DNA of 63,256 bases from Candidatus Aminicenantes bacterium (GTDB lineage Bacteria > Acidobacteriota > Aminicenantia > JAMOAD01). The DNA is taken from the NCBI GenBank assembly GCA_027031485.1, contig JALVQI010000218.1, positions 1 to 63,256 on the forward strand, read 5' to 3'. The translations under genes and the position numbers were made by a program. The notes below the pieces were generated by a model that saw only the letters and a list, made by a program, of their open reading frames with translations, was not told where the DNA came from and made no database searches. Shown in pieces: positions 872 through 27,929 of this stretch. Positions within the stretch are counted from its first letter, which is position 1. Every line of letters starts with the position of its first letter.

Positions 872-886
872 TGGAATGAAAATTGA
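872..886 (+). promoter_or_regulatory. Sigma-54 type -24/-12 promoter candidate (TGGAAT-N5-TTGA) for the 922 gene
   Basis: TGGAATgaaaaTTGA, with the -12 G 37 nt from the ATG. Caveat: an extended -10-like TGcTATAAT sits at 887-895, so sigma-70 initiation is not excluded. Confidence 0.5.
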
Positions 887-921
887 TGCTATAATTATCA
901 TGAATTTAAAAGGAGGGAAAA

Positions 922-2295
922 ATGAGGAAAAGAATCTTTTTTATTTTAATCATAACATTGTTTATCTCTGTTTTTGTTTATTCACAAAGCATCACAGTAA
1001 CAAGTCCCCACTCAGGAGATTTCTGGGAAAAAGGTAAAACCTATACAATCACCTGGACAAAGAGCGGCACTATGAATGCGAATGTTAAAATCAGATTGAT
1101 GCAGAATGGCTCAAGGGTACTCCCCATAACAGATTCAACTCCTAATAACGGAAGCTACAGCTGGGAAGTTCCTGTAGATCTTGCAAACGGTTCTTATTAC
1201 ATAAGAGTGAAGACAGTGGATAATCAGGTGTATGATGATGGTGAAGCTTTTACGATAGGAAATAGTTCTTCTGCAAGTATCACAGTAACAAACCCCCATT
1301 CGGGTCAGATATGGTGCAAAGGCAAGACCTATACAATCACCTGGACAAAGAGCGGAACCATGTATCCTAATGTCAAAATCAGATTGTTTCATGGGAGCAC
1401 AAAGATACCCATAACAGATTCTACACCTAATAACGGAAGCTACAGCTGGGAAGTTCCTGTAGATCTTGCAAACGGTTCTTATTACATAAGAGTGAAGACA
1501 GTGGATAATCAGGTGTATGATGATGGTGAAGCTTTTACAATTCAAAATTGTTTTGTTGGTATCGGTAATAACACTAATTATAGTAAATATGGTAGTGCCT
1601 ATAAACTTCAAAAATTACCGGATCTAACACCAGAAAAAGAAAATGTTGGATTTATAAATTGGGAATTAAAAATTGTTAGATTTAGAGTAGATATAAGAAA
1701 CAAAGGTGCCTCAGATGCCCATAATATTCCTGTTAAATTAGAAGTTTACAAAAGAGGAGCTCCTGCTCGTTTGCTAAAAACTTTTACTGACTCAATTGAT
1801 TTTCTTCCTCAAGAAGTATATGTGACCCGTGTTTTTGATTATAAATTACCGGAAATCGGAACGTATGATTTTATATTCAAGATAAATCCCGATCATACTG
1901 TAAGTGAATATAGGTATGACAATAATACCAGTGTAAGAAAATCAATTTCGAGAGAAAAATTACCCGACCTCATTGTTTGGCTTATGACTAAGAGGGTTGA
2001 TATTATTTCAAGATCAAAAATATGGATAGGTGTTCAAAATATAGGGCAAAAGACATCACCTCCCACTAAGTTGAAAGTATATATACAGACAAAAGGAACA
2101 AAATACCTTGATATTCCGGCAATAGAACCGGGGAAATTTTATACTGCCGAGAGAAAGGAGTGGTTTCACTCCTTAAAAGATGTATGGGTAGAGATGTGGA
2201 TTGACCCTTTCAACACTATTAGAGAGGACAGGGAAAAGAACAACCATGCCAAAACAAAGTTGGATGTCTGGAGTCATACTGTTTTTAGTAAATAG
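922..2295 (+). CDS. Secreted repeat-family protein (member 2): signal peptide + 2 Ig-like repeats + two CARDB-like tail domains (type A tail)
   Basis: An AGGAGGG Shine-Dalgarno precedes the start. The signal peptide is MRKRIFFILIITLFISVFVYS/QS. There are two PHSG..W.KGKTYTITWTKSG repeats. The tail has PDL...N.G... blocks ending EYRYDNNT and DPFNTIREDREKNN, a CARDB-type signature. Confidence 0.85.
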   Translation: MRKRIFFILIITLFISVFVYSQSITVTSPHSGDFWEKGKTYTITWTKSGTMNANVKIRLMQNGSRVLPITDSTPNNGSYSWEVPVDLANGSYYIRVKTVDNQVYDDGEAFTIGNSSSASITVTNPHSGQIWCKGKTYTITWTKSGTMYPNVKIRLFHGSTKIPITDSTPNNGSYSWEVPVDLANGSYYIRVKTVDNQVYDDGEAFTIQNCFVGIGNNTNYSKYGSAYKLQKLPDLTPEKENVGFINWELKIVRFRVDIRNKGASDAHNIPVKLEVYKRGAPARLLKTFTDSIDFLPQEVYVTRVFDYKLPEIGTYDFIFKINPDHTVSEYRYDNNTSVRKSISREKLPDLIVWLMTKRVDIISRSKIWIGVQNIGQKTSPPTKLKVYIQTKGTKYLDIPAIEPGKFYTAERKEWFHSLKDVWVEMWIDPFNTIREDREKNNHAKTKLDVWSHTVFSK

Positions 2296-2370
2296 CAAAC
2301 CCCATTCCTGTTTTTTGTAATATTTTCAGATTTTTAATAAAGAACTTACAAGTGAAAAGAAGGTAAAAAA

Positions 2371-3522
2371 GTGAAGAAAAAAAAGAAGGGAAGAATGCAA
2401 AGAAGACTTTTAGTGTTTTTTTAATTGCAATATTCATTGTTACTTTTGGTTTTTTCACAGAATATCAAAATAAAAAGTCCCCACTCTGGAGACACATGGT
2501 ATAAAGGACAAACTTATACAATCACCTGGACAAAAACAGGTACAATGAATTCAAATGTAAAGATAAGACTAATACAGAATGGGACAAAAATATTGGGAAT
2601 CACAGATTTAACTCCTAACAATGGAACCTTCAACTGGCCAATACCTGCAAATTTAGTCTCAGGTACTTACTATATAAGAGTAAAGACAATAGACAATGCT
2701 GTATATGATGATGGAGAGGAATTTACGATTACTAATGTAGTTAATCCTCCTGTTAATACTATTAGGATTACGAATCCCCACGGCGAAGTAACATGGGCAT
2801 TAAACTCAAGGAATATGATTCAATGGACATATGAAGGTAGTGGTAACATAGTGATACAATTGTATCAATCATGTTCACCTGTCGGAACAATATATGATGG
2901 ACCAAATACAGGAAGTTTTAATTGGATTATTGATAAATATTTGAACGGAAGTTCTATAACCAGAGGTAGCTATAAGTTAAGAGTAAGTTCAAAAGATACT
3001 CCTTCAGTCTATGATGAAGTTGATCTAACTGTTAAAGGTGAAAGTCATATTTCCTATAAGGATAGTTTCTTATCCTCATCATTAAAAGAAATTGATTTTA
3101 CAGTAGGTGAACATCAATATAACCCTTCAAGAAAACTTTTATTGTTTGAAGTTAAGTCTTCAGTACCTTATCAGGGAAAGATTAATTATGTTGTATTTAT
3201 GGAATCCACATTGGTTTCAAGAAGGCAAAACGCAAAAATCACGGGTGAAGTGAATTTTAACAATGAAACAAGAAAAACAGTTGAACTTAATATTTATAGA
3301 TATCTTCCAGCATCGCTCTATTGGTGTTATAAAGTAATCTTTATTGTTAATGATAAACAGGCTGGAGCTAATATAGTGCCAGAGAAAACACATTTTAATA
3401 ATTCTTCTGAAGGTTTTATATGTAATAGAAAAAAGGTGAGCTTTGAAGATTTAAAAATTAGGCTGATAAAGAATAGAGAGTACTATTGGAAACCCATTCC
3501 AAGAAAAACAGAAATTATTTAA
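2371..3522 (+). pseudogene. Repeat-family member 3, disrupted (type B tail): degraded start region, in-frame TAA inside the signal peptide, premature TAA at 3520
   Basis: Aligned with the intact 26571 start region: ATG has become GTG (2371), the SD AGGAGG has become AGAAGG, and a T8 run is now T7. That gives ...LLVFF-TAA (2422-2424). The frame is restored by an extra T in a second T run before SQNIKIKSPHSG. The expected TGGCAC-N5-TTG position reads TTTTGT-N5-TTTC (about 2313-2328). Confidence 0.75.
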
Positions 3523-3534
3523 ACTAATGAAGAA

Positions 3535-3852
3535 TTGAATGTAGATAACGAAGGAAATATTCAAATTTTCATTAAAGGTAATATAAAAAATTATACTCCT
3601 CGGGTTGTAATAAGAGAAGATTGTATTGTTTACGTATGGGGAGGAAGAGGTAATAATTTACGTGTTTTTCGGCTTAATCCTGACTATTTTAAAATTGAAC
3701 CGGCGAGATATAAAGGATTTACTGCTGATGCAAAAGGCAAATTTAATTCAGACGGAGAGATTAGAGTTAAAATTAGTTGTGCACGTGGACAAGGGATCGT
3801 ACGGATAGTAGACACAATGTGTGATTTATTACTTAGAAAATCGGAAGAGTAG
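3535..3852 (+). pseudogene. C-terminal piece of the same disrupted member, in the same frame and cut off by the TAA at 3520-3522
   Basis: Both pieces are in frame 1. ...YYWKPIPRKTEII*TNEELNVDNEGNIQIFIKGN... is colinear with the uninterrupted ...YYWKTVFSGTRGEVFEYKESDMDLAGNIPILIKGK...PARYKEFTANAKGKF of the 9720 gene. Confidence 0.75.
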
Positions 3853-3983
3853 AAATTTTTAAATTTTGAAGGCTTTACTTTTTTATTGGTAAGCAGTTTG
3901 AGAAAAAATTTTTTGGGAAAGATAGCGAAATTATTTAATTTTTTCAAAATTCCAATTAAGATTAAAAGTATCCTCAACAAAAA

Positions 3984-4008
3984 TGTCTAACTGTTCGACA
4001 AAAATGTT
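3984..4008 (+). promoter_or_regulatory. Upstream TGTC-N9-GACA / TTCGACA element; candidate activator site for the 4125 gene
   Basis: tgtctaactgttcgacaaaaatgtt. The TTCGACA core is 81 bp upstream of the -24 element. Confidence 0.45.
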
Positions 4009-4074: not shown

Positions 4075-4089
4075 TGGCATAAAATTTGA
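4075..4089 (+). promoter_or_regulatory. Sigma-54 type -24/-12 promoter candidate for the 4125 gene
   Basis: TGGCATaaaatTTGA, with the -12 G 37 nt from the ATG. Confidence 0.6.
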
Positions 4090-4124: not shown

Positions 4125-5483
4125 ATGACAAAAAAGATTAAGATTCTGTTCATTCTTTTATTTTTTATCTCAGCTCTTTCATTTGCTCAAACTATCACCG
4201 TAACAAGTCCCCATTCGGGAGATACCTGGAATAAGGGGAGAACTTACACAATCAGATGGACAAAGTCGGGTACTATGAATGCAAATGTAAAGATAAGGTT
4301 AATTCAGAATGGAACAAAAATCTTGGGGATAACGGATTCAACCCCCAATAATGGTAGCTATTCATGGACAATTCCTGCAAATATTCCTGATGGAACTTAT
4401 CAGATCAGGGTTAAAACTATAGATAATGCAGTGTCTGATGATAGCGATTCTTTTACGATAGGAGTAAATAATGCTTATCTTCAAATAACTTCTCCCTCTG
4501 CTGGTATAACATGGTATAAAAAAACCACATACAAAATCAAGTGGAATAAAACAGGGTCTATGTCTAATAGAGTAAAGATAAGACTTTATAGAAATGGAGT
4601 GAAAGTGTTAGGAATTACAGATTCTGCTCCCAATAATGGTATATTTGAATGGACTATTCCGGATACGGTTCAGGAAGCAAGTAATTATATTATAAGAGTG
4701 AAAACCGTTGATAATTTGGTATCCGATGATAGTGACTTGTTTTCTATAAAAAATTCAAATATAAATATTAATACGAATTTCAATAAAAAATTCACTCCTG
4801 TCGGTTTTCCCGAACTTGAGGTTTACGGAACTTCGCTCCGCTATACAGGAAATAAAGACGGTGAAATTAAAATTCATGTTGCAGTCAGGAACACAGGAAA
4901 AGTGGATGTTTCAAATGTACCTTATACTTTCATAATAGATGGACCATCGGGAAGATACGATTTTTATTCCTTACAGGGACATTTTGCCTCTATTCCCAGA
5001 GGAATGACAGTTGTTTTTGATAAAACCTATGTTCTTGAGGATGAAGGTAAGTATAAATTTTCTTTTGAGGTTAATCCGAATCACAGAGCCTTTGTTGAAT
5101 ATAGATATGATAACAATAAGTTTGAAAAAGAAATAAAATACATAGGTGCTCCTGATCTCGTTGTTAAGGTGATTGTCGGAATGCATTCAAGATTGGGATT
5201 TTCACATAAAGTATGGTTTGAGGTGAAAAACATAGGAACAAGGGCATCATCTGACTGTAAACTGAGAACTTATATAAAAGGAAAGGGAGTTAAATTTTTT
5301 AATGTGCCTCATCTTTATCCGGGAGAAAAAGCAACATTTATAAGAACGGTAAAATGGTTAACTCTTGGGTATAAAAAGATTGAAGCTATCGTTGATTATT
5401 ATAATATAATTCGGGAAAAGAATGAAAACAACAACAAAACAGATGTTAGAACAAAGGTTGTAACCGGTACAATTTTTGATTAA
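4125..5483 (+). CDS. Secreted repeat-family protein (member 4): signal peptide + 2 repeats + two CARDB-like domains (type A tail)
   Basis: A GGAGG SD precedes the start. The signal peptide is MTKKIKILFILLFFISALSFA/QT. The tail is colinear with the 922 tail (EVNPNHRAFVEYRYDNN ... VDYYNIIREKNENNN). Confidence 0.85.
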   Translation: MTKKIKILFILLFFISALSFAQTITVTSPHSGDTWNKGRTYTIRWTKSGTMNANVKIRLIQNGTKILGITDSTPNNGSYSWTIPANIPDGTYQIRVKTIDNAVSDDSDSFTIGVNNAYLQITSPSAGITWYKKTTYKIKWNKTGSMSNRVKIRLYRNGVKVLGITDSAPNNGIFEWTIPDTVQEASNYIIRVKTVDNLVSDDSDLFSIKNSNININTNFNKKFTPVGFPELEVYGTSLRYTGNKDGEIKIHVAVRNTGKVDVSNVPYTFIIDGPSGRYDFYSLQGHFASIPRGMTVVFDKTYVLEDEGKYKFSFEVNPNHRAFVEYRYDNNKFEKEIKYIGAPDLVVKVIVGMHSRLGFSHKVWFEVKNIGTRASSDCKLRTYIKGKGVKFFNVPHLYPGEKATFIRTVKWLTLGYKKIEAIVDYYNIIREKNENNNKTDVRTKVVTGTIFD

Positions 5484-5607: not shown

Positions 5608-5622
5608 TGGCACAATATTTGA
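5608..5622 (+). promoter_or_regulatory. Sigma-54 type -24/-12 promoter candidate for the 5659 gene
   Basis: TGGCACaatatTTGA, with the -12 G 38 nt from the ATG. Confidence 0.6.
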
Positions 5623-5658: not shown

Positions 5659-6975
5659 ATGAAAAAAGGAGCTTTGTTGTTTTTTTTAATTGCGCTATTT
5701 ATTGTTACAATAGGTTATTCTCAAAGCATCACAGTAACATCTCCCCATTCTGGAGAAACCTGGTATAAAGGAAGCTATTATCATTACACGATAAGATGGA
5801 CAAAGAGAGGTGATATGAATGCAAATGTTAAAATCAGATTGTATCAAGGTGATTCAAGGGTTTTATCCATAACAGATTCAACTCCTAATGATGGGGAGTA
5901 TGAATGGACAATCCCAGAAAGCGTTGATGAAGGAACATATAAGATTAGAGTAAAAACAATTGATAATGCGGTTTACGATGATAGTGAAGATTTTAGTATC
6001 GCAAATCCAACATCCTCATCTGCCACAATAACAGTAACTTCTCCCTATTCTGGAAATGTCTGGTATAAGGGGAAAGTCTATTATATCAGATGGACAAAGA
6101 GTGGAGATATGAATGCAAATGTTAAAATCAGATTGTATCAGGGTGATTCAAGGGTTTTATCTATAGCAAATTCAACACCTAATGATGGATTGTATGAGTG
6201 GAGAATTCCGGTAAGTATAAGTAAAGGAACATATAAGATCAGAGTAAGAACAATTGATAACCTTGTGTATGATGATGGAGAAGATTTTACAATAGAAGAA
6301 GCCTCTGCCATAGGACATGCATTTACCATAACAAGCCCGAAAGCCGGGGATGTTATACTTAGAAGCAGAATGCACAGGACTATAACCTGGGAAGATAATG
6401 GAAGTCATTGTGATGTTGTTTCTTTATATCTTATTAAATACAGGAGCATTGAAAATAGACCATTAACTCCTCCTTCTCTTATTAGGAATACAGGAGTGTA
6501 TAATTCATGGCGTATTTATCCAGGTGACGAAGGGGGAAAATATTTTATAAAAATAGTGTCTGGATGTGATGATGGAGTTTATGGAAAAAGTGGGATTTTT
6601 TCAATACTAAAAAAGAGTAAAATTCAGGTTACTAAAAGAAAAGATAAAGCAAGGGATTTTGCTTTGATTGCTTCCCCAATGTTTTTTAAAGATAATTTTT
6701 TGGTTGTAAGAATGAAGAATTATTACAATGATTTTGAAGGCAACTTAAAATTCAGAATTATAATTTACCAATCCGGAGCTTTTGTAGGGAAGAGAGATGT
6801 AGTTAAGCATATAAGCATTAAAGCTAATGAGACTAAAGAAATCAGATTTCGCTCAAATCCTTCAATTTGCGGAAAAGATGTGACTGTTATAATTGACCCT
6901 GATAATGAAGTGAAAGAAACAGACCGCCACAATAATAATCTTACGTCTCGTATTAGATGTGGAGAAAAAAGATAG
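5659..6975 (+). CDS. Secreted repeat-family protein (member 5): signal peptide + 2 repeats + 1 divergent repeat + type C CARDB-like tail
   Basis: An AGGAGG SD precedes the start. The signal peptide ends GYS/QS. The tail reads KNYYNDFEGNLKFR...IDPDNEVKETDRHNNN. Confidence 0.85.
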   Translation: MKKGALLFFLIALFIVTIGYSQSITVTSPHSGETWYKGSYYHYTIRWTKRGDMNANVKIRLYQGDSRVLSITDSTPNDGEYEWTIPESVDEGTYKIRVKTIDNAVYDDSEDFSIANPTSSSATITVTSPYSGNVWYKGKVYYIRWTKSGDMNANVKIRLYQGDSRVLSIANSTPNDGLYEWRIPVSISKGTYKIRVRTIDNLVYDDGEDFTIEEASAIGHAFTITSPKAGDVILRSRMHRTITWEDNGSHCDVVSLYLIKYRSIENRPLTPPSLIRNTGVYNSWRIYPGDEGGKYFIKIVSGCDDGVYGKSGIFSILKKSKIQVTKRKDKARDFALIASPMFFKDNFLVVRMKNYYNDFEGNLKFRIIIYQSGAFVGKRDVVKHISIKANETKEIRFRSNPSICGKDVTVIIDPDNEVKETDRHNNNLTSRIRCGEKR

Positions 6976-7050: not shown

Positions 7051-7064
7051 TTCGACAAAATTGT
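7051..7064 (+). promoter_or_regulatory. TTCGACAAAATTGT element; candidate activator site for the 7183 gene
   Basis: This 14-mer is identical to the one at 9575-9588 and 16491-16504. It lies 81 bp upstream of the -24 element. Confidence 0.5.
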
Positions 7065-7131: not shown

Positions 7132-7146
7132 TGGCACAAAATTTGA
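7132..7146 (+). promoter_or_regulatory. Sigma-54 type -24/-12 promoter candidate for the 7183 gene
   Basis: TGGCACaaaatTTGA, with the -12 G 38 nt from the ATG. Confidence 0.6.
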
Positions 7147-7182
7147 AAGAGATTTTTACCAAATTTATTTTGGAGGGATAAA

Positions 7183-9252
7183 ATGAGGAGAAAAATTTTA
7201 ACCCTTTTAATACTGTTTTTTAGTAGTTTTTTGTTTGTATACTCTCAATCTATTAAAATTTTGTCTCCTCGTGCAGGAGCTATACTTTTCAAAGGTAATA
7301 CTTACACAATTACCTGGACAAAAACAGGTACAATGAATGCAAATGTAAAAATCAGATTAATGCAGAATGGGAAAAAAGTAATGGGTATTACAGATTCAAC
7401 CCCCAATGATGGCAGCCATCCATGGACAGTACCTACAAATTTAACCCCAGGGACCTATTATATCAGGGTAAAAACAATAGACAATGCTGTGTATGATGAT
7501 GGAGAGAAGTTTACAATCGCAGATGCACCGTCAAAGAAAGCAAGTATCACCGTAACAAGTCCTCATTCAGGCGACACATGGAGTAAAGGTAAAACTTACA
7601 TAATAAAATGGACAAAGAGCGGAAGTATGAATCCTAATGTTAAAATCAGGTTGATTCAGGGAGGAACAAAAATTTTAAGTATAACTAATTCTACTCCTAA
7701 CAATGGAAGCTATTCTTGGACTGTACCTGATGGTTTGCCAACCGGAAATTATCAGATAAGAGTGAAGACAGTTGATAATGCAGTATACAATGATAGTGAT
7801 AAATTTAAAATTGAAGAACCTTCAGCTGAACCAAAGCCTTATATAGAGAGGATATCGCCAGTAAATGTAAGAGTTGGAGATGAAATAGAAATTTTCGGGA
7901 AAAATTTCTATTCTCAGAATGATCATTATGTGGTCTGTGGAGATGGTCACTATAGTGTGACACTAAAAGATTTGGAATGGAAAAAGAATTACATCAAGAT
8001 AACCACGAAAAACACCGCCCTAAAAGCAGGTAATAAGTATGCATTGAAGATTAGAAAATTCAGAGGAGAAGATGCCCTTACTGAAAAAACCGACTCTAAT
8101 CGTGTATATTTCAAAGTTGTGGAACCGGAAGAAGAAAGTTGTATGTTGAAAATTGTAAGAGCGGGTTTATTTAAAAATAGAATTAAGGAAGGAGAAGAAG
8201 TAAAATATTTTATTGTAGTAAGGAATGAGTCTAACAAGGATTTTAAAGGAGATATATTCGGTAGAATATCTTTAACTTCCACCTCAAAAAAGTATCGTAA
8301 CGGACTTGAAATAAAACAAAATATTATACTTGAAGAAGGACAGGAAAAGCAAATAAATTTATCTTTTCGTAGTGATAGCATGAAAGATTTTACAGCTGGA
8401 GTGTATTTCGCCGAATTTTTTATTGTTTATAAGGTAGATTCTTCTTTGGAATGCAAGAATAAATATAAGGGCAAATCTCAATTAATAATTGAAGAAAAGA
8501 AAGAGGATTTTGATCTCACAGCTTACAATTGCGGATATAAAAAGGATGTTTTTACAAAAGGTGAAACAGGTGATTTTGTTGTTACTGTTACAAATAAAGG
8601 TCCATCAACCGTTAAAAAATATAAAATAATCGCCTGGAGTGTTAGAGGTAATGGGAAATCCCTTGTTTCTATTAGAGGAAATACAGGGCAAACTTTTCAA
8701 AGAGATAGAGAGTTAAAAGCCAATGAATCAATAATGGAAGGATTTAAGCTTAGGATAAAAGATTCTCCGGGTGATTATACTCTTTTTATAAAGGTTGAGT
8801 CTGTTGAACCCGAATCAAACAAAGAGAAAAATAAAACTAATAATACCTGTAAAATGAATTATAAAGTATTGTATAAAACAAATACCACTTCCATTAGTCG
8901 TCCGATTACACTGAATTTTCCGGATTTGACTTTTGATAGCAAAAGGACAAAAATAGGAGCAAATGGGATAGAAGCAGTGATAAAAAATCTGAATTACAAG
9001 AAGGCTAAACTACCTTTCCCTAAGACAAAAGAAATATTTGTAAAAATTGAGAATATAAGTTCTACAAAATTTCAAAGAAATATTCTTGAATTCCCTTTAC
9101 CAGTCAGTGTTATCACAGAATTAAATAAAACAGGTGAAACAGATTATATTTCAAGATTGGGAATAAGATTTCCCGCAGCAAGAATAACCATTGATTCAAA
9201 GAATTCTATATTAGAAACAAATGAAAACAATAATACAATAGCTGTGGAGTAA
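7183..9252 (+). CDS. Secreted repeat-family protein (member 6): signal peptide + 2 repeats + IPT/TIG-like domain + several CARDB-like domains
   Basis: The signal peptide ends VYS/QS. PYIERISPVNVRVGDEIEIFGKNF is IPT/TIG-like. The tail ends DSKNSILETNENNN. Confidence 0.85.
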   Translation: MRRKILTLLILFFSSFLFVYSQSIKILSPRAGAILFKGNTYTITWTKTGTMNANVKIRLMQNGKKVMGITDSTPNDGSHPWTVPTNLTPGTYYIRVKTIDNAVYDDGEKFTIADAPSKKASITVTSPHSGDTWSKGKTYIIKWTKSGSMNPNVKIRLIQGGTKILSITNSTPNNGSYSWTVPDGLPTGNYQIRVKTVDNAVYNDSDKFKIEEPSAEPKPYIERISPVNVRVGDEIEIFGKNFYSQNDHYVVCGDGHYSVTLKDLEWKKNYIKITTKNTALKAGNKYALKIRKFRGEDALTEKTDSNRVYFKVVEPEEESCMLKIVRAGLFKNRIKEGEEVKYFIVVRNESNKDFKGDIFGRISLTSTSKKYRNGLEIKQNIILEEGQEKQINLSFRSDSMKDFTAGVYFAEFFIVYKVDSSLECKNKYKGKSQLIIEEKKEDFDLTAYNCGYKKDVFTKGETGDFVVTVTNKGPSTVKKYKIIAWSVRGNGKSLVSIRGNTGQTFQRDRELKANESIMEGFKLRIKDSPGDYTLFIKVESVEPESNKEKNKTNNTCKMNYKVLYKTNTTSISRPITLNFPDLTFDSKRTKIGANGIEAVIKNLNYKKAKLPFPKTKEIFVKIENISSTKFQRNILEFPLPVSVITELNKTGETDYISRLGIRFPAARITIDSKNSILETNENNNTIAVE

Positions 9253-9564
9253 AAATCTGAAAGTGAATAATCTTTTTTAAGAGAAGTAGGGTAGTTATAA
9301 GTAAAAATTTTTTTCATATGTTTTTATAATTAAAACAATTATATTATAAAACAAAAACAATTGTTCATGATAAACTAATATTTATCTTAACACCTGTTAG
9401 ATTACAAAAAATAAGGATATGGACGAAAGGAATAATAAATACAAATTCTCAATTAGATTCAACTAATTGTTTTAAAAATAAAAATTTTTTATTATGGCTA
9501 AGAGGATTGTAGTAATAGGCGAATAATATGTATTAAATATCAAAGGCAAAAAACAGAACAAAAA

Positions 9565-9592
9565 TGTCTAACCATTCGACAAAATTGTTAGG
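9565..9592 (+). promoter_or_regulatory. TGTC-N9-GACA / TTCGACAAAATTGT element flanked by CTAAC...GTTAG; candidate activator site for the 9720 gene
   Basis: tgtctaaccattcgacaaaattgttagg. The core is 95 bp upstream of the -24 element. Confidence 0.5.
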
Positions 9593-9669
9593 TTTTATGC
9601 TCTTATATTTTTTTTTAACCTTAATTAAATAAAAATAATTACTTAATTATGTTTTGAAACTACTGTTTT

Positions 9670-9684
9670 TGGCACAAAATTTGA
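9670..9684 (+). promoter_or_regulatory. Sigma-54 type -24/-12 promoter candidate for the 9720 gene
   Basis: TGGCACaaaatTTGA, with the -12 G 37 nt from the ATG. Confidence 0.6.
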
Positions 9685-9719
9685 ATATCTGTTTATCTAT
9701 TTAATTAGGAGGTTAAAAA

Positions 9720-16301: not shown

Positions 16302-16480
16302 AAGTAGAGTTAGATATAAAAAGGCCAGCAGGTTTTTAAAGAAAGAATATTAAAAAACATAGAGGGTAAATCGGGAAGACCATAAATTTATTGAGCTTAA
16401 TGTTCATAACAAAATTTCTGATGCTAAATTTTAAAAATAATATTTATTAATTATCTTACTGTGAAACATCAGAACAAAAA

Positions 16481-16508
16481 TGTCTAACCATTCGACAAAA
16501 TTGTTAGG
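16481..16508 (+). promoter_or_regulatory. TGTC-N9-GACA / TTCGACAAAATTGT element; candidate activator site for the 16635 gene
   Basis: Identical to 9565-9592. The core is 94 bp upstream of the -24 element. Confidence 0.5.
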
Positions 16509-16584
16509 TTTTATGCTCTTATATTTTTTTTAACCTTAATTAAATAAAAATAATTACTTAATTATGTTTTGAAACTACTGTTTT

Positions 16585-16599
16585 TGGCACAAAATTTGA
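16585..16599 (+). promoter_or_regulatory. Sigma-54 type -24/-12 promoter candidate for the 16635 gene
   Basis: TGGCACaaaatTTGA, with the -12 G 37 nt from the ATG. Confidence 0.6.
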
Positions 16600-16634
16600 A
16601 TATCTGTTTATCAATTTAATTAGGAGGTTAAAAA

Positions 16635-18099: not shown

Positions 18100-18133
18100 A
18101 GGAAGGAGGTTTTCCTCCTTCCTCTTTGCTTTT
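18100..18133 (+). terminator. Rho-independent terminator after the 16635 gene
   Basis: AGGAAGGAGG-tttt-CCTCCTTCCT followed by ctttgctttt. The T-tract is interrupted, so it may be leaky. Confidence 0.7.
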
Positions 18134-18140
18134 ATATAAA

Positions 18141-19447: not shown

Positions 19448-19462
19448 TGGCATAAAAACTGA
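19448..19462 (+). promoter_or_regulatory. Weaker sigma-54 type promoter candidate for the 19509 gene
   Basis: TGGCATaaaaaCTGA, with the -12 G 48 nt from the ATG. Confidence 0.4.
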
Positions 19463-20922: not shown

Positions 20923-20950
20923 ACAATTTTGTATGATGTTTCGACAAAAA
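20923..20950 (+). promoter_or_regulatory. ACAATTTTGT + TTCGACAAAAA elements; candidate activator site for the 21087 gene
   Basis: acaattttgtatgatgtttcgacaaaaa. The TTCGACA core is 79 bp upstream of the -24 element. Confidence 0.4.
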
Positions 20951-21017
20951 AGACGAAGCAACTGTCTTTTTTTTAACTCCATATAGGAAAATTCTTTTTT
21001 TTAAATAAAATCTATTC

Positions 21018-21032
21018 TGGTATAAAAATTGA
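21018..21032 (+). promoter_or_regulatory. Weaker sigma-54 type promoter candidate for the 21087 gene
   Basis: TGGTATaaaaaTTGA, with the -12 G 56 nt from the ATG. Confidence 0.4.
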
Positions 21033-21086: not shown

Positions 21087-23054
21087 ATGAAAAAAGGAAT
21101 TATGCTCTTTTTATTAATCTTTTTCGGATTAATTATTCTCTTATCAGCAGGAAATATTGGATTGATTGAACCTCATCAGAATGCTGTTTGGTGCAAAGGG
21201 CAAACTTATGAGATAGTGTGGATGGTTTTGGGAGATGTCTATCCTGTGAGTAAACTAAGACTTTACAATGCTTCAAACACTGTGAAAATTTTAAATATAA
21301 TCAACAAAGTTCCAACTCCTCAGGGTGTATTTCCATGGAAGGTTCCCTTTTCAATACCCGATGGTAAATATGTAATTAGAATAAAAACAATTAATAATAA
21401 AACATATGCGGTATCAAAGGTTTTTACAATTAAAAATTGTTCTGCCCCCGCTCCTTCACCCTCCCTATCCGGAAATATAAAAATAATTTCACCTGCCCCC
21501 AATGTGGAATGGACAAAAGGCAATACTTACAAAATCAGGTGGCAGTATAATATCAAGAAAGGCATTCCAATTAAAATCAGACTTCTTGATTCTATCACTA
21601 TGACAAAGGTGTTAGGTATTGTAGATTCGTACCCTGGAAATACAGGAAGTTTTGATTGGAAAATTCCCGATAACATTAAGGAAGGAATTTATAGAATCAG
21701 AGTTAAAACTATAGATAATAAGATTTGGGATGATTCTCAGGTGTTTAAAATCAAAAATGGTGTTGTAATTGCAGAATACAAACCGATAAAACTTGAAAAG
21801 CCTTACATCTTTTATTCCCCTAAAAGCACTGACACATGGAGACCGCTTCATAGTTATGAAGTGCATTTGGAATTTTATAGAAATAAGGTGGCATCATTAG
21901 GATGGGGAATAATGTCCGTTTACTCCAAATTAAGATTTAAAATTGTTTCTGTTGATAACCCTAAAGTCAAGCCCCTTATAATTGCTGAACAAAATTATAA
22001 TTCCCCCTACAAACAAGTTCAGAATATTGCTCCTCCGGGAGAGCGTGAAAAAATGAAACATATTTATCATTTTGTATGGTATTTTAAAGGCTCATATAAT
22101 CTTCCCACAGGAAAATATAAAGTAGTTTTTCAATCTTTGGAAAAACCTTCCCTGACAATGGAGAGTGATGTCTTTCACATTGTAAACAATCTTCCTTCAG
22201 GAGGTGGATATTTGGATATTCCCGGGGTCGGAGATGTTAAAATAAATGGTATGTATTTTGATAATGCTACAAAAAATGTATATGTTAGTATAACAAACAA
22301 CAATTATCCTCTATCAGATTTCTACCTTAATTACGTATTGTGTACTACTGAGGGGGGAACAAAATCTCAATCTTTTAAGTGCGAGAATAGAAGCAAATCA
22401 GGGTTTGTTAAGAATATAAAAGTACCACAGTATCAAACTGTTAAAGTCCCTGTAATAAAGAATTTTCAATGTTTTAATAATAAACCACCCGCTTCATGTG
22501 TTAATCCATCCCCTTTTCCAAGACCTATTTGGTTTTCAGCTTCACTTATGTCAAACAAAACAAATGAAGAAGCTGCTTCCATAAGTGGGTTTCTGTGTAA
22601 AACCCTAAAACCTGACATACGGGTTAGGGATGTTCTCTTCTTAGAAAAGAAGAACGGAGGTTCCTTCTGGCTTAAATACAATACTTACAACGAAGTTCCT
22701 AAATATTTGTTCAAAAATACATCCGCCTACATAGAAGCTCCTATACAGGTGGACATTGAAAATTGGGGTTGTACTAAGAGAACTTTCTATATAGATCTTT
22801 ATGTTGAGGATGGTCCTTATTTGAATGAGAAAAAGGGTATCAGATTGGGCTCTATGACCTTAGGACCTGGAGAAACCGGTTATTTTAAATCTTCTCCTGT
22901 TAAAATATCAATTCCAATGGATGGAAAGTTTCATAAATTGGTTTTAATCGCTGATCAGGAAGAAGCCGGAAATGAAGGCTATATGCAATCCTATCTGAAT
23001 AACATTATAGTAACCTTTGTCAAAATTGTCCCTGAAAATAACAGATTATGGTAA
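21087..23054 (+). CDS. Secreted repeat-family protein (member 12, the most divergent): signal peptide + 2 divergent repeats + long unique tail
   Basis: The repeats read IEPHQNAVWCKGQTYEIVW...GKYVIRIKTINNKTY and ISPAPNVEWTKGNTYKIRW...GIYRIRVKTIDNKIWDDS. The remaining ~430 aa match nothing I recognise. Confidence 0.8.
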   Translation: MKKGIMLFLLIFFGLIILLSAGNIGLIEPHQNAVWCKGQTYEIVWMVLGDVYPVSKLRLYNASNTVKILNIINKVPTPQGVFPWKVPFSIPDGKYVIRIKTINNKTYAVSKVFTIKNCSAPAPSPSLSGNIKIISPAPNVEWTKGNTYKIRWQYNIKKGIPIKIRLLDSITMTKVLGIVDSYPGNTGSFDWKIPDNIKEGIYRIRVKTIDNKIWDDSQVFKIKNGVVIAEYKPIKLEKPYIFYSPKSTDTWRPLHSYEVHLEFYRNKVASLGWGIMSVYSKLRFKIVSVDNPKVKPLIIAEQNYNSPYKQVQNIAPPGEREKMKHIYHFVWYFKGSYNLPTGKYKVVFQSLEKPSLTMESDVFHIVNNLPSGGGYLDIPGVGDVKINGMYFDNATKNVYVSITNNNYPLSDFYLNYVLCTTEGGTKSQSFKCENRSKSGFVKNIKVPQYQTVKVPVIKNFQCFNNKPPASCVNPSPFPRPIWFSASLMSNKTNEEAASISGFLCKTLKPDIRVRDVLFLEKKNGGSFWLKYNTYNEVPKYLFKNTSAYIEAPIQVDIENWGCTKRTFYIDLYVEDGPYLNEKKGIRLGSMTLGPGETGYFKSSPVKISIPMDGKFHKLVLIADQEEAGNEGYMQSYLNNIIVTFVKIVPENNRLW

Positions 23055-23242: not shown

Positions 23243-23276
23243 TTGACAATTTCGTAGGGTATTGCAACAATTTTGT
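23243..23276 (+). promoter_or_regulatory. TTGACAATTTCG...ACAATTTTGT elements; candidate activator site for the 23388 gene
   Basis: ttgacaatttcgtagggtattgcaacaattttgtt, 60-90 bp upstream of the -24 element. Confidence 0.35.
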
Positions 23277-23333: not shown

Positions 23334-23348
23334 TGGCACGATTTTTGA
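23334..23348 (+). promoter_or_regulatory. Sigma-54 type -24/-12 promoter candidate for the 23388 gene
   Basis: TGGCACgatttTTGA, with the -12 G 41 nt from the ATG. Confidence 0.6.
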
Positions 23349-23387: not shown

Positions 23388-24884
23388 ATGAAGAAAGTTT
23401 TAATGGTTTTTTTAATCGCAATGTTCATTGTTGCTTTTGCTTATTCACAAAGTATCACAGTCACGAATCCTCACTCCGGACAGACATGGTATAAGGGGAA
23501 TACTTATACAATCACCTGGACAAAGTCAGGTTCTATGAATGCAAATGTAAAAATCAGATTGTACCAGGGGGGAGTAAAAATTCTTAGTATCACAAATTCT
23601 ACACCTAACAATGGAAGTTACTCCTGGCCAGTTCCTAACAGTTTGCCATCCGGAACTTATAAGATAAGGGTGAAAACAATAGATAATGCAGTCTATGATG
23701 ATAGTGAAGTTTTTGAAATAGCAAATCCTCTTCCTTCTGGCGGTTCAATTTCTATAACCCATCCTGCTGCGGGTGAATGCTGGGAAAAAGGTTCAACTCA
23801 TACAATCACCTGGACAAAATCAGGTTCTATGAATGCAAATGTAAAAATCAGATTGTTTCAAAGTAGCACAAAAGTTCTTAATATTACAAATTCTACACCT
23901 AACAATGGAAGTTACCCCTGGACAGTTCCCACAACTTTATCCGATGGAACCTACTATATTAGGGTGAAGACAATTGATAATGCTGTGTTTGATAATGGTG
24001 GTTATTTTTATATCAAAAGCAGCTGTGATGAAGGGAGCGGTCCTTCTTTTGACCTGGGAAGATTTACTGCTGCTTTAGATCCTGTTGAACTGGCTATATT
24101 AATGCATGGCCCCGGCCCTATTTCCATAGGGGGAATTGGCAGTATGAAAGAGGTTCTTGAAAAACAAGGTGTTAAAATCCCTATAAGAGTAACACTTATG
24201 AGAGGCAGGGAAGTTGTTCAGGATTTCGGAGTTTTTAAACCTGTATTAAAAAGAGGAAGAGTCTTTTTTAATTCTATGCCGGCAACATTCAGTTTAAAAC
24301 TTACTCCGAAAATGAAAGAGATTATTGGTACACATCCGGAAGAGTTCAGGCTTGTTATAATGTCAAAAGGTGAGGTTTTAGCAGAGAAACCTCTTAAACT
24401 TCAGGAAAGAAGGAGAACCATTGACTCAAGACTGACCACTATTAATCCCAAAATAATAAAAAATATCAGGGTTGTCGGATGCCCTGATCCTGCCGTTGTA
24501 GATATTAAATTTTCCATTGTGCAAAGATATTCACAGTTTAGAGGTAAAGTTAGGATAACAGGAGTGGTAAAGAATGTAGGAAAAGCTGATTATATAAGTA
24601 AGCCCGGTCGTCAATCAATTGTTTTGGATGCGGGCGATGCCGCTCATCCTCTAAAAACAATACCGTTTACGAACTTAAAAAGCGGGCAATCCATAACTAT
24701 TTCTTATGAGCTTAATTGGGATTCTGCCTCTCCGAATGAAGGAGAATTTCCCCCCACTTATAGAGTTTATATTGTCTATGATCCTGATATTACAATGGAT
24801 TCAATAAAAACAAACGATGATTGCAATGTTAATAATAACAGTATGACAAAAAGCGGAAAAGCTATTAACGATATGCTGAAATAG
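23388..24884 (+). CDS. Secreted repeat-family protein (member 13): signal peptide + 2 repeats + type D middle module + CARDB-like end
   Basis: The signal peptide ends AYS/QS. The middle module reads LAILMHGPGP...GVFKPVLKRGRVFFN. The end reads DPDITMDSIKTNDDCNVNNN. Confidence 0.85.
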   Translation: MKKVLMVFLIAMFIVAFAYSQSITVTNPHSGQTWYKGNTYTITWTKSGSMNANVKIRLYQGGVKILSITNSTPNNGSYSWPVPNSLPSGTYKIRVKTIDNAVYDDSEVFEIANPLPSGGSISITHPAAGECWEKGSTHTITWTKSGSMNANVKIRLFQSSTKVLNITNSTPNNGSYPWTVPTTLSDGTYYIRVKTIDNAVFDNGGYFYIKSSCDEGSGPSFDLGRFTAALDPVELAILMHGPGPISIGGIGSMKEVLEKQGVKIPIRVTLMRGREVVQDFGVFKPVLKRGRVFFNSMPATFSLKLTPKMKEIIGTHPEEFRLVIMSKGEVLAEKPLKLQERRRTIDSRLTTINPKIIKNIRVVGCPDPAVVDIKFSIVQRYSQFRGKVRITGVVKNVGKADYISKPGRQSIVLDAGDAAHPLKTIPFTNLKSGQSITISYELNWDSASPNEGEFPPTYRVYIVYDPDITMDSIKTNDDCNVNNNSMTKSGKAINDMLK

Positions 24885-24909
24885 CACAAATCTTTCCTCA
24901 TAATCGTGG

Positions 24910-24946
24910 AAGCCGCCTCTTTTTTAAAGAGGCGGCTTTTTTATTT
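24910..24946 (+). terminator. Rho-independent terminator after the 23388 gene
   Basis: AAGCCGCCTCTTT-ttt-AAAGAGGCGGCTT followed by TTTTATTTT. Confidence 0.85.
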
Positions 24947-24976
24947 TAATTGTATAAATTTTTACAGGTATGTAAT

Positions 24977-24997
24977 TTTCGTCGACGAAATTGTCAG
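24977..24997 (+). promoter_or_regulatory. 14-bp perfect palindrome TTTCGTCGACGAAA + TTGTCAG; candidate activator site for the 25123 gene
   Basis: It lies 94 bp upstream of the -24 element. Confidence 0.45.
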
Positions 24998-25070: not shown

Positions 25071-25085
25071 TGGCACGTTTTTTGA
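25071..25085 (+). promoter_or_regulatory. Sigma-54 type -24/-12 promoter candidate for the 25123 gene
   Basis: TGGCACgttttTTGA, with the -12 G 39 nt from the ATG. Confidence 0.6.
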
Positions 25086-25122: not shown

Positions 25123-26373
25123 ATGAAAAAAATCTTTATGTTTTTATTATTTGCAATGTTTATTGTTGCGATAGGTTATTCGCAAAGTATCACAATAACA
25201 AGTCCCCATTCGGGAAATTGCTGGGAAAAAGGTAAAACTTACACAATCACCTGGACAAAGAGCGGAACTATGAATGCGAATGTAAAAATCAGGTTATATC
25301 AGGGAGGTACGAAGATATTATCCATAACTGATTCAACACCTAACAATGGAAGTTACGGCTGGACAGTACCTGCAACTGTTGCGGATGGTTCTTACTATAT
25401 AAGGGTGAAAACAACAGATAATGCAGTCTATGATGATAGTGACACTTTTCAAATTAAAACCTCATGCTCTTCGGGTAGTAGCTATCCTTTCTTAAATCTG
25501 AAGAAATATCTTGCAGGAATGAATCTGGGGGAACTTGCGGTTTATATGCATGGTCCGGGTCCTCGGATAAGAAATTTTGATAAAATAAAGAATCTTTTTG
25601 AAAAAGCAAATTTCAAAGAGCCTGTTACTATAAAGCTTTTTAAAGGAAGGACAGAAATTACCAATCTCGGAACATTTAGGCCGGAGATAAGAAATGGAAG
25701 AGTGAATTTTAATACGGTGCCCTCTATCTTAAATGTGAATCTTAATTCAAAACAGAAAGAGATGATGATTGAAAATCCAGAAAATTGTTTTCTTGTTTTC
25801 TTTTCTAAAAGTAAGATTATCGGCAGGACAAGAGTGAAAGTAAAACTTGACAATGGTAGACTTAGTAAAATTCCAAAATTTTCCCCTAAAACTTTTACTC
25901 GTTCTTCGGATCTTGCTGCGGTTAAATTAAGTTTAACAATATATCGTAGTTATCGAACAATAAATTCTAAAACTTATATAAGAATGGAAGCTCAGGCGAT
26001 AATTCAAAATATTGGAAAGAATAATTTTAGAGATTATACAGGGAAATCCTGGATCTATCTGAATTTGGCTACTATGAATGATTCTTACCCTCTGGAGAAT
26101 TTTAAGATTACTTCTTTAAGTGTAAAAGAGAAAAAAGTTGTTACTAAAAAATTTTGGTATCCCGTTGATGGTTATGGTTTTTTTTATCAGGAAGAAATAG
26201 ATAGCGGTGACGCCACTGAAGTTGATAACTATGAAGGAGTTGAGGTTATTATAAGTTCTCCCTTTGATACAAATAGAAACAATAACACTAAATTCATTAA
26301 TAACCTTAAAGTCATGAATTTAATTAAAGATTTTCTAAAAACTTCTAACTTTTCAAAAACAATAACAGAATAA
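25123..26373 (+). CDS. Secreted repeat-family protein (member 14): signal peptide + 1 repeat + type D middle module + CARDB-like end
   Basis: The middle module reads LAVYMHGPGP...GTFRPEIRNGRVNFN. The end reads DLAAVKLSLTIYR...IQNIGKNNF...WYPVDG...DTNRNNNT and is shared with the 26571 gene. Confidence 0.85.
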   Translation: MKKIFMFLLFAMFIVAIGYSQSITITSPHSGNCWEKGKTYTITWTKSGTMNANVKIRLYQGGTKILSITDSTPNNGSYGWTVPATVADGSYYIRVKTTDNAVYDDSDTFQIKTSCSSGSSYPFLNLKKYLAGMNLGELAVYMHGPGPRIRNFDKIKNLFEKANFKEPVTIKLFKGRTEITNLGTFRPEIRNGRVNFNTVPSILNVNLNSKQKEMMIENPENCFLVFFSKSKIIGRTRVKVKLDNGRLSKIPKFSPKTFTRSSDLAAVKLSLTIYRSYRTINSKTYIRMEAQAIIQNIGKNNFRDYTGKSWIYLNLATMNDSYPLENFKITSLSVKEKKVVTKKFWYPVDGYGFFYQEEIDSGDATEVDNYEGVEVIISSPFDTNRNNNTKFINNLKVMNLIKDFLKTSNFSKTITE

Positions 26374-26524: not shown

Positions 26525-26539
26525 TGGAACGAAATTTGC
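26525..26539 (+). promoter_or_regulatory. Sigma-54 type -24/-12 promoter candidate (closest to consensus) for the 26571 gene
   Basis: TGGAACgaaatTTGCA, with the -12 G 33 nt from the ATG. A TTCGACAG sits immediately upstream at 26515-26522. Confidence 0.6.
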
Positions 26540-26570: not shown

Positions 26571-27419
26571 ATGAAGAAAAGACTTTTAATGTTTTTTTTA
26601 ATCGCAATATTTATTATTACTTTGGGTTATTCGCAGAGCATCACGGTAACGAATCCTCATTCGGGAGATACCTGGTATAAGGGAAAAACTTACGAGATAA
26701 GATGGACAAAAAGCGGAAACATGAATGCAAATGTTAAAATCAGATTAATGCGGGGTGGCACGAAGATACTCGCTATAACAGATTCAACGGCAAATAATGG
26801 AACCTATAAGTGGACAATTCCAATTTCGCTTCCGAACGGTCAATACAGGATAAGAGTGAAAACTATAGATAATGCAGTTTTTGCGGAAAGCGAAGTTTTT
26901 ACCATTAAAGTTAGGTTTGAAATGGCTAAAAGGAATATTTCTTCACAGCTCACCTTATTAAAAACTCCTCTCCGGATTAAATCTCCGGATCTTGCTATAG
27001 TAAAAACAAGCCTTACTATTTATCGTGATTTTAAGTGGTCGCACAATATAAGATATATAAGAATAGAATTTAAGGGGCTCATTCAGAATGTTGGGACAAA
27101 AAATTATGTGGATAACTCAGGAAAACCTTGTATATTTCTATACTTGTCAACAATGTGGATGGATTATCCGGAAGAGGAGTTTAGGCTTCCTTCTTTAAAA
27201 GTGCATGAAAGGAGAATTTTTTCTCACACAATTTGGTATCCAGTAGATGGATTTATGATTGGAGGAGAATATTTTTACAAGGGTGTTCTCTTTCGTATAG
27301 AAACTGATAAAGAGATAAACAAAACAAATAATTACAAAGAATTTTATGTTAATGAAGTTAAAACTTTTATAGAGGATTTTCTAAATTCAAGTGCAAATGT
27401 AAGAACAATAAATAAATAG
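26571..27419 (+). CDS. Secreted repeat-family protein (member 15, short): signal peptide + 1 repeat + CARDB-like end
   Basis: The signal peptide ends GYS/QS. The tail reads PDLAIVKTSLTIYR...IQNVGTKNY...WYPVDG...ETDKEINKTNN. Confidence 0.85.
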   Translation: MKKRLLMFFLIAIFIITLGYSQSITVTNPHSGDTWYKGKTYEIRWTKSGNMNANVKIRLMRGGTKILAITDSTANNGTYKWTIPISLPNGQYRIRVKTIDNAVFAESEVFTIKVRFEMAKRNISSQLTLLKTPLRIKSPDLAIVKTSLTIYRDFKWSHNIRYIRIEFKGLIQNVGTKNYVDNSGKPCIFLYLSTMWMDYPEEEFRLPSLKVHERRIFSHTIWYPVDGFMIGGEYFYKGVLFRIETDKEINKTNNYKEFYVNEVKTFIEDFLNSSANVRTINK

Positions 27420-27514
27420 GCCCTTTTACATAATTATTGATGGGTGTATTCTTTTAGTTAAATTTTATTGTTTCTTTTCTCAAATGCATTAATTCATACA
27501 TAAGTCATGAGGTA

Positions 27515-27760
27515 TGATCCAGGGGATTGACGATTTAAAAGAGCTTCTTGAAAAAAGCTTTAAATGTCTATAAGAATAAGGTTAGTGGAGAAAAAGCTCA
27601 TTTTAAATTTCAGGGAACTTATCAAAATAGAGCTGAGCATACTGGATAAAAATTATTTTGATTGTTATAAAACCTGTAACATTAAAAAGATTGCATAAAC
27701 CTGATATTTATTGTGCCTGTGAAAAAGTCAGGAATGAGTGACTCTTTTATAAATAAATCT
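27515..27760 (+). pseudogene. Probable decayed relic of a type D middle module
   Basis: Across shifted frames it reads MIQGIDDLKELLEKSFK...KVSGEKAHFKFQGTYQNRAEH...KNYFD. The intact modules read GGIGSMKEVLEKQGVK...GREVVQDFGVFKPVLKRGRVFFN and FEKANFKEP...GRTEITNLGTFRPEIRNGRVNFN. There are multiple stops. Confidence 0.4.
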
Positions 27761-27822
27761 GTTTTAAATATTAAAAAGAAAGTCCTTTCTTCTGATTGAA
27801 AATGATACAAGTTTCGTAAAAA

Positions 27823-27842
27823 TGTCGACATAAATGTCGATC
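27823..27842 (+). promoter_or_regulatory. TGTCGACA palindrome + a second TGTCGA; candidate activator site for the 27965 gene
   Basis: tgtcgacataaatgtcgatc, 92 bp upstream of the -24 element. Confidence 0.45.
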
Positions 27843-27914
27843 TCATTAGTATAAAAAATAGGATTGCTTTTTTATGGATTAAAAAATAATAGGATTTTAA
27901 AGGTTTTTCATAAT

Positions 27915-27929
27915 TGGCATGAAAATTGA
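27915..27929 (+). promoter_or_regulatory. Sigma-54 type -24/-12 promoter candidate for the 27965 gene
   Basis: TGGCATgaaaaTTGA, with the -12 G 37 nt from the GTG start. Confidence 0.6.

Follow-up and report, generated by a model that had tools for sequence, protein, structure and literature searches.

How would a bacterium control a long row of related genes for secreted proteins: as one block, or gene by gene? The question is raised by contig JALVQI010000218.1 of a Candidatus Aminicenantes bacterium (assembly GCA_027031485.1), which was analysed over its whole length of 63 kb and is called the window here. The window has a G+C content of about 32%. Its first part (positions 1-29 kb) is a tandem array of genes, all on one strand, for secreted proteins with a Sec-type signal peptide and, N-terminally, one to five Kre9_KNH Ig-like repeats. 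These proteins vary in their C-terminal halves, where CARDB domains are frequent. An initial annotation of this DNA proposed that every intact family member has its own -24/-12 promoter, read by sigma-54 (RpoN) and gated by bacterial enhancer-binding proteins (bEBPs). The follow-up analysis agrees in the main. It is considered likely that each intact family gene is a transcription unit of its own, expressed from an enhancer-dependent promoter of the sigma-54 type by way of upstream boxes and a bEBP.

All 14 promoter sites listed in the initial annotation are present in the window, at the positions and with the sequences reported there, one for each intact family gene. Sites and genes lie on the forward strand. 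The first site, TGGAATGAAAATTGA (872-886), precedes gene 922-2295, whose product has a signal peptide, two Kre9_KNH Ig-like domains and two CARDB domains. It is followed by TGGCATAAAATTTGA (4075-4089) before gene 4125-5483, by TGGCACAATATTTGA (5608-5622) before gene 5659-6975, and by TGGCACAAAATTTGA, which occurs three times: at 7132-7146 before gene 7183-9252, at 9670-9684 before gene 9720-12359 and at 16585-16599 before gene 16635-18071. The others are TGGAATGATTGTTGA (12651-12665, gene 12700-14043), TGGCATGAAAATTGT (14270-14284, gene 14323-15741), TGGCATAAAAACTGA (19448-19462, gene 19509-20825), TGGTATAAAAATTGA (21018-21032, gene 21087-23054), TGGCACGATTTTTGA (23334-23348, gene 23388-24884), TGGCACGTTTTTTGA (25071-25085, gene 25123-26373), TGGAACGAAATTTGC (26525-26539, gene 26571-27419), which is the sole site of the window with the canonical C at -12, and TGGCATGAAAATTGA (27915-27929, gene 27965-29068). 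Each of the 13 genes after the first encodes a Sec-type signal peptide and N-terminal Kre9_KNH repeats. One more family member, at 2371-3852 on the same strand, is a true but disrupted copy, interrupted by a stop within the signal peptide and broken again near position 3522; it has no -24/-12 element, as had been reported for this pseudogene.

Taken together, the 14 sites follow the pattern TGG[C/A/T]A[C/T]-N5-[T/C]TG[A/C/T]. When they are aligned on the motif, T0, G1, G2, A4, T12 and G13 are invariant, and the less fixed columns are C at position 3 in 10 sites, T at position 11 in 13 and A at position 14 in 12. The motif columns hold 1.3-2.5 bits of information, as against about 0.05-0.5 bits in the flanks. 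The initial annotation had likened the motif to a phylogenetic footprint in otherwise diverged intergenic DNA. This is true of the columns beside the motif, which are near-uninformative, but not of the upstream regions as a whole, where a second conserved element lies about 65-112 nt farther upstream. The fixed geometry was confirmed: in 12 genes the start codon follows the -12 G at a distance of 33-41 nt, and the remaining two have distances of 48 and 56 nt. With transcription predicted to start about 12 nt downstream of -12, the 5' untranslated region would measure about 20-28 nt (outliers of 35 and 43 nt) and would hold a GGAGG Shine-Dalgarno sequence as its ribosome-binding site.

Could such a pattern arise by chance in AT-rich DNA? 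The strict form of the pattern has 12 matches against 2.0 expected, and none of 100 shuffles reached 12. The relaxed form, searched on both strands of the window, has 18 matches, 14 of which are the promoter sites; the rest are intragenic (for example at 22247). The motif discovery that had been proposed as a check gave the same answer, since a blind Gibbs sampler run on the 14 upstream regions ranked the -24/-12 motif first (21.6 bits). The second motif was an upstream box (17.3 bits) and the third the Shine-Dalgarno sequence (16.2 bits), and on eight shuffled sets the best motif scored 12.5-13.4 bits. Over more than 120 nt, the upstream regions of genes 9720 and 16635 (9600-9720 and 16515-16635) are almost the same, a sign of recent duplication, so the 14 sites count as about 13 independent ones.

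The element is also kept outside the window. A set of 49 non-redundant sites, the window's 14 included, was defined by the element together with a Shine-Dalgarno sequence and a long open reading frame (ORF), which nearly always has a signal peptide; almost all of these ORFs belong to the family. In the related loci L083/L084, L085/L086, L088, L089, L091, L092, L094, L096, L105 and L114, the element lies 25-42 nt before the start codon of family genes whose products are about 40-60% identical to those of the window; the DNA around the sites is unrelated. The majority of the family-bearing contigs in the genome collection are titled Candidatus Aminicenantes. Some loci with both family and promoter (L089, L091, L096, L104, L105, L110-L114 and L122) are titled Clostridia, Dojkabacteria, Persephonella or Eubacteriales, and are probably mis-binned or mislabelled Aminicenantes.

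How well do these sites fit a sigma-54 promoter? The published consensus is mrNrYTGGCACG-N4-TTGCWNNw (quoted in PMC2725144). The spacing of 10 nt from GG to G is exact in 14 of 14 window sites and in 49 of 49 overall, and TGG and TG are invariant. The secondary positions agree as well: a pyrimidine precedes TGG in 31 of the 49 sites, position 3 of the motif is C in 37, the next two are A and then C or T in all 49, position 6 (G after TGGCAC in the consensus) is a purine in 47, and the base after -12 is A or T in 45. The -12 base itself is A in 30 sites, C in 12, T in 6 and G in 1; within the window it is A in 12, T in 1 and C in 1, and a strict GC doublet is not the rule. TTGC and TTGA alternate before homologous genes, so one factor most likely reads both. 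Natural sets of sigma-54 promoters that differ only at -12 are on record (PMC3162934). As judged from these sites, the lineage prefers A at -12, which is unusual for sigma-54 promoters.

Sites of this kind are not restricted to the family. In L085, the gene for a 768-residue secreted DUF6600 protein has a TGGAATAGTTTTTGA element and a Shine-Dalgarno sequence upstream (5104-5151), and in L121 and L122 the canonical TGGCACGCATTTTGC lies 5' of a gene for a different secreted protein. The regulon may thus extend beyond the family.

The second conserved element had been missed by the initial annotation. It consists of two 14-bp boxes that lie 65-112 nt upstream of the -24 element at 11 of the 14 promoters. 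Each box follows the consensus TTCGACAAAATTGT or its reverse complement and has a palindromic core, ACA-N4-TGT. Paired boxes are 20-21 bp apart, that is, two helical turns, and a typical pair is ACAAAAATGTCTAACCATTCGACAAAATTGT. The whole window contains 26 ACA-N4-TGT sites, and 16 of these fall between -125 and -50 relative to one of the 14 promoters. These zones amount to 1.7% of the window, and the density of the core is about 94-fold higher there than elsewhere. Sites composed of both boxes lie 88-112 nt upstream of the -24 T, and in 11 genes the blind Gibbs sampler placed its box 131-147 nt upstream of the start codon. Family genes in L083, L088, L089, L092, L105 and L114 are preceded by the same boxes at an unchanged distance. 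Their position, pairing and two-turn spacing are as expected of a sigma-54 enhancer, in which the upstream activating sequence (UAS) lies roughly 70-150 bp upstream, and on these grounds the boxes are treated as putative enhancers.

The individual boxes, for which no strand is assigned, are as follows. Gene 922 has ACATATTTGTCGAA and ACAATTTTGCCATA (788-820), 84 and 65 nt upstream of the -24 T. Gene 4125 has ACAAAAATGTC-N9-GACAAAAATGT (3977-4007), and gene 7183 a perfect TTCGACAAAATTGT unit (7051-7064) with a degenerate upstream partner. The ACAAAAATGTCTAACCATTCGACAAAATTGT pair lies before gene 9720 (9558-9588) and, in identical form, before gene 16635 (16474-16504). Boxes are also found before gene 12700 (ACACTTTTGTC-N8-GACAAACTTGT, 12547-12576), gene 14323 (ACATTTTTGTC-N9-ACAAAAATGT, 14162-14191), gene 21087 (ACAATTTTGTA-N9-GACAAAAAAGA, 20923-20953), gene 23388 (ACAATTTCGT-N11-ACAATTTTGT, 23246-23276), gene 25123 (ACAGGTATGTA-N9-GACGAAATTGT, 24964-24994) and gene 27965 (ACAAGTTTCGT-N9-GACATAAATGT, 27807-27837). 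Between the duplicated regions of genes 9720 and 16635 there is a difference of one T, in a T9/T8 tract between boxes and promoter, so that boxes and promoter are separated by 95 nt in one region and by 94 nt in the other.

Which protein could bind these boxes? The 63-kb window itself contains no rpoN and no gene for an enhancer-binding protein. The initial annotation had advised looking for bEBP genes elsewhere in the genome, and an operon for a histidine kinase and an NtrC-type bEBP was found in metagenome-assembled genomes (MAGs) that bear the family, as well as on a contig from the window's own metagenome. A search of the collected loci for the GAFTGA signature gave one match adjoining a family gene. 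It lies in L102, a more distant relative, where the order is a sensor kinase, a family gene 3' of TGGCATATTTTTTGC (TGGCAT-N5-TTGC) and an NtrC-type activator with the Pfam domains REC, Sigma54_activat and HTH_8. The sensor kinase of L102 / L127 (CBDUZW010000005.1) has 1118 residues, with two-component propeller repeats, Y_Y_Y and HisKA; we take its sensor part to be of the type seen in the hybrid two-component systems of Bacteroides.

The closest homologues of the L102 activator include proteins named in their sources as sigma-54-dependent regulators of Candidatus Aminicenantes and Candidatus Saccharicenans. P0125-P0131 form a tight group that is 54-56% identical to the L102 activator and belongs to one conserved type of locus. 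In L183 (GCA_964634755.1), L185, L189 and L311 the order is a small ORF, a histidine kinase and the bEBP, divergent from an operon for PKD-domain secreted proteins. The intergenic region that they share contains two TTGTCGAA boxes 21 bp apart, which lie 85 nt upstream of a TGGCAY-N5-TTGA promoter facing the PKD operon. The boxes at 788-820 and the promoter at 872 in the window match this arrangement and distance, as seen in L311 and L183. Precomputed domains of P0127-P0131 are REC, Sigma54_activat and HTH_8, with a histidine kinase gene adjacent. Their activator loops read GAYTGA or GSFTGA, both of which are known variants in natural enhancer-binding proteins (PMC4676750).

These operons can be connected to family arrays through their sources. 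L183 (P0127) is from the same MAG as family array L089, L187 (P0131) from the same MAG as family gene L086, and L311 from the same JGI sample as family array L084, as is P0129. L189 (P0130, scaffold_4840) belongs to ENA assembly ERZ23491057, which also holds L081, the twin contig of the window; the window's GuaB is also encoded on scaffold_291 of ERZ23491057. In the genome collection, by contrast, a 38-base stretch of the window has no exact match, and the nearest GuaB is 64% identical. The tetranucleotide correlation with the window is 0.96 for L189 and 0.975 for L081, compared with 0.86-0.94 for other Aminicenantes loci. The kinase/bEBP operon is the prime candidate for the regulator of the array.

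Some features of the operon stand apart from this question. In L183, L185, L187, L189 and L311, a gene for a NusG paralogue (157-167 residues) and feoAB directly follow the activator gene and are encoded on the other strand. The activator operon is preceded by a conserved TGGTAYGAAAATTTAA (L183 ~8380-8410, L185 ~8320-8352, L189 ~4465-4495), whose counterpart in L311 (~4305-4336) reads TGGTATGAAAATTTAA off the strand. It resembles a -24/-12 element that lacks the -12 G. The A of the first ORF's ATG falls exactly at the predicted +1, with no Shine-Dalgarno sequence, and the transcript of the activator operon may be leaderless and autoregulated.

How, then, would the array be switched on? From the observations above we infer that sigma-54 reads the promoters and that this bEBP reads the boxes. 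The core element is TGGCAY-N5-TTGM, with GG at -25/-24 and TG at -14/-13. Sigma-54 holoenzyme would wait at each promoter in a closed complex that does not open unaided, so that the promoters would be silent without a signal. Upon a signal, the partner histidine kinase would phosphorylate the NtrC-family regulator, a protein with REC, an AAA+ sigma-54-interaction domain and a Fis-type helix-turn-helix (HTH). Activator dimers would bind the paired boxes and assemble an ATPase ring, which would loop across the AT-rich spacer and, by ATP hydrolysis, remodel the closed complex to the open one. The whole array, together with the PKD-domain secreted-protein operon beside the regulator genes, would then be induced jointly.

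In favor of sigma-54 promoters gated by bEBPs, as first proposed, are the cross-genome motif with its interchange of TTGA and TTGC, the match to the secondary consensus, the two-box element at the position of a UAS, the boxes and promoter beside the kinase/bEBP operon, and the gene order of L102. Intact enhancer-binding proteins would imply sigma-54 as well. Several points weigh against this interpretation. In 12 of the 14 window promoters, A stands in place of the -12 C of the conserved GC doublet. rpoN was not located: an RpoN-box search of the collected loci matched Anaerolineales genes only, and a degenerate RpoN-box scan of the genome collection gave no Aminicenantes among the at least 120 matches listed, the best tetranucleotide correlation with the window being 0.82. 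Recognizable boxes were not found at three of the 14 promoters, namely 5608, 19448 (where the upstream spacer is only 53 nt) and 26525 (no clear box). IHF-like sites between boxes and promoter number 0, with 0.33 expected. The boxes are paired with this particular bEBP by co-occurrence alone. Finally, at 872, 12651 and 14270 a TATAAT lies directly 3' of the element (TGCTATAAT, 884-892, in the first case), and these promoters could also serve sigma-70 holoenzyme.

Is sigma-54 the only factor that might read such a promoter? A factor specific to this lineage, such as an alternative sigma of the sigma-70 family or the extracytoplasmic function (ECF) type, or a regulator that binds DNA at the core promoter, could recognize TGGCAY-N5-TTGA, with the boxes bound by a conventional activator or repressor and the likeness to the consensus coincidental. 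The lack of the -12 C in most window sites and the unverified rpoN speak for such a factor, as does a weakly conserved T-rich stretch 8-13 nt 3' of the motif (columns 22-27). It would nevertheless have to match the sigma-54 consensus in spacing and in 13-14 of 16 positions, secondary ones included, to accept both TTGC and TTGA before orthologous genes, and to share its promoter and boxes with the neighborhood of a gene for a sigma-54-interaction AAA+ protein, and the 5-nt gap fits no ECF-type -35/-10 spacing. We regard this explanation as improbable.

Less probable still, and in our judgment very unlikely, are ordinary sigma-70 promoters, in which TTGA(A/T)N would act as -35 hexamer, a -10 box would follow after about 17 nt, and the TATAAT of the three genes named above would be an extended -10. 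TTGAAA and TTGATG do resemble -35 hexamers, the three TATAAT sequences are good -10 boxes, and one scan match (TTGAAA-17-TATTTT, 7143-7171) has the right form. A -10 box 17 nt after TTGA would, however, overlap the Shine-Dalgarno sequence, which is the third-strongest motif of the region, and transcription would start at or past it. The expected -10 columns hold only 0.3-0.7 bits, 11 of the 14 promoters have no conserved -10 box at a usable position, and the invariant TGG 9 nt upstream of TTG is left without a role. Sigma-70-like matches are not enriched in the region (96 against 88.3 +/- 10.5 expected). A canonical sigma-70 promoter is found nearby, before the glycan-biosynthesis operon that follows the array: a terminator (29089-29117) is followed by TTGAGT-17-TATAAT, preceded by TG, at 29176-29204, in agreement with the initial annotation. 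Thus the housekeeping promoter type is ordinary in this DNA, and the TGGCAY element represents a separate class.

That the motif is functionless and a by-product of recent duplication or gene conversion at the paralogues' 5' ends has almost nothing left to recommend it: the 9720/16635 duplicate and the 53-70% identity among the paralogues' signal peptides and first domains would fit, but six motif columns are invariant beside near-uninformative ones, the motif is kept before 40-60% identical family genes of other genomes, and it also precedes the unrelated PKD-protein operon. A Bacteroidetes-type -33/-7 promoter was considered by reading the sequence and rejected. Although the 3' half of the element is similar to TAnnTTTG, none of the sites has its first T, and the invariant TGG is found 3 nt upstream where about 20 would be expected; these genes also have strong Shine-Dalgarno sequences.

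With sigma-54 as the favored factor, does the array respond as a whole or member by member? The initial annotation had allowed for selective expression of single members. The enhancer common to most promoters argues instead for coordinated induction. A more far-reaching version can be put forward only tentatively and is doubtful as a whole: that the entire secreted Ig-like/CARDB repertoire and the PKD operon are one regulon of a single histidine kinase/NtrC pair and of a sigma-54 that prefers A over C at -12, with a private promoter and two-box enhancer kept for each paralogue. The -12 region is central to the lock of the sigma-54 closed complex (PMC5095919). If this version is true, the shifted -12 preference could alter how tightly the promoters stay closed without activator.

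The layout of the array agrees with gene-by-gene transcription. A strong intrinsic-terminator hairpin lies on the forward strand at 24908-24940, 3' of gene 23388-24884, and similar hairpins lie between or after array genes at 15765-15790, 18100-18123 and 29089-29117. Terminators between several of the genes support separate transcription units. The GC-rich hairpin AGGAAGGAGGTTTTCCTCCTTCCT is identical 3' of the paralogues 14323-15741 (15765-15790) and 16635-18071 (18100-18123), and the second copy stops 2 nt short of the listed start of a lipoprotein ORF. An Rfam search of window positions 1-30 kb found no RNA family. The 893-nt spacer 5' of gene 16635 contains a decayed fragment of a CARDB-type C-terminus (16125-16289) with 35% identity to residues 384-438 of the 922 protein (E = 1e-5).

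The lipoprotein gene just mentioned (18126-19394) lies inside the array but is not a family member; it has no Pfam match and no -24/-12 element. Its product is 75% identical to that of L088 8436-9692, at the equivalent array position in another MAG, and is conserved far better than the surrounding family genes. The gene may belong to the array as a fixed partner. Beyond the array, the glycan-biosynthesis operon occupies 29-55 kb and is followed by genes for SppA, XerD, GuaB, SecA and a DUF481 protein. The operon includes genes for two sulfotransferases and an enzyme like UDP-sulfoquinovose synthase (32101-32934, 42025-42825 and 46899-48365), which suggests a sulfated or sulfonated surface glycan.

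What would such a system mean for the biology of these bacteria? Bacteria of the Aminicenantes (OP8) are uncultured and occur widely in sediments and the subsurface. The locus gives them a testable circuit with a named promoter type, an enhancer sequence and a candidate sensor-regulator pair, which would control probably a major part of the secreted and surface proteome. The approximately 50 related promoters, with A and C alternating at -12, are a natural set for asking how the -12 position tunes the locked state of sigma-54. In annotation, the two motifs used jointly can delimit the regulon in any Aminicenantes MAG.

How does the array compare with systems that are already known? Among the closest known systems are enteric promoters of the glnAp2 type, which depend on NtrB/NtrC, serve nitrogen-assimilation targets and have boxes of the form TGCACC-N5-GGTGCA. 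The Aminicenantes promoters share with them a -24/-12 core, two putative dimer sites roughly 100-140 bp upstream of the start for a REC-AAA+-HTH regulator, and a partner histidine kinase; enhancer looping and ATP-driven opening would be expected here as well. The general sigma-54 enhancer mechanism has been described (PMC5095919). In contrast to the glnAp2 type, the targets here are a tandem secreted Ig-like/CARDB array, the boxes are TTCGACAAAATTGT-like, the -12 base is mostly A, an IHF-like site was not seen, and the host is an uncultured member of the Aminicenantes. Another such system is the pilin gene pilA, which is controlled by PilS/PilR and sigma-54 in Pseudomonas and Geobacter (cited in PMC2725144). 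Like the predicted circuit of the array, it combines a two-component NtrC-family bEBP with sigma-54, an abundant exported surface-structure subunit and a short-leader promoter. PilS/PilR, however, serves one structural gene, whereas the array has at least 14 paralogues that are not pilins, each with a private promoter and enhancer copy.

The many tandem paralogous genes for surface or secreted proteins, each with its own promoter, also recall phase- or antigen-variable surface families with per-member promoters, such as the Bacteroides capsule loci and the Mycoplasma lipoprotein families. The common enhancer motif of the array points to co-induction rather than one-at-a-time expression. An invertible promoter segment or long slippage-prone tract was not noticed in the array, where no dedicated repeat search was run.

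The initial annotation had called sigma-54 control unusual for a family of surface proteins, and this does not hold, since control of exported and surface functions is a general theme of sigma-54 (PMC3162934; PMC4551910). The theme of the cell exterior was set out by Francke et al. 2011 (PMC3162934) and restated later (PMC4551910); across the sequenced phyla it covers the transport and biosynthesis of exopolysaccharide, flagella, lipopolysaccharide, lipoprotein and peptidoglycan precursors (PMC3162934). The present case resembles it in that predicted sigma-54 promoters and bEBPs adjoin genes for exported or surface proteins, and the array lies beside a large glycan operon. It differs in that neither the Aminicenantes nor a multi-copy secreted family with a promoter per gene is described there. 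A literature search found no paper that ties Aminicenantes to sigma-54 or rpoN regulation; the sole text with both terms was a study of Desulfobacteraceae. To conclude, the kind of system is already known, as sigma-54 control of cell-exterior functions is a recognized theme. What is new is a predicted regulon of this kind in a candidate phylum, a paralogous array with a promoter and enhancer copy for each gene, and the preference for A at -12.

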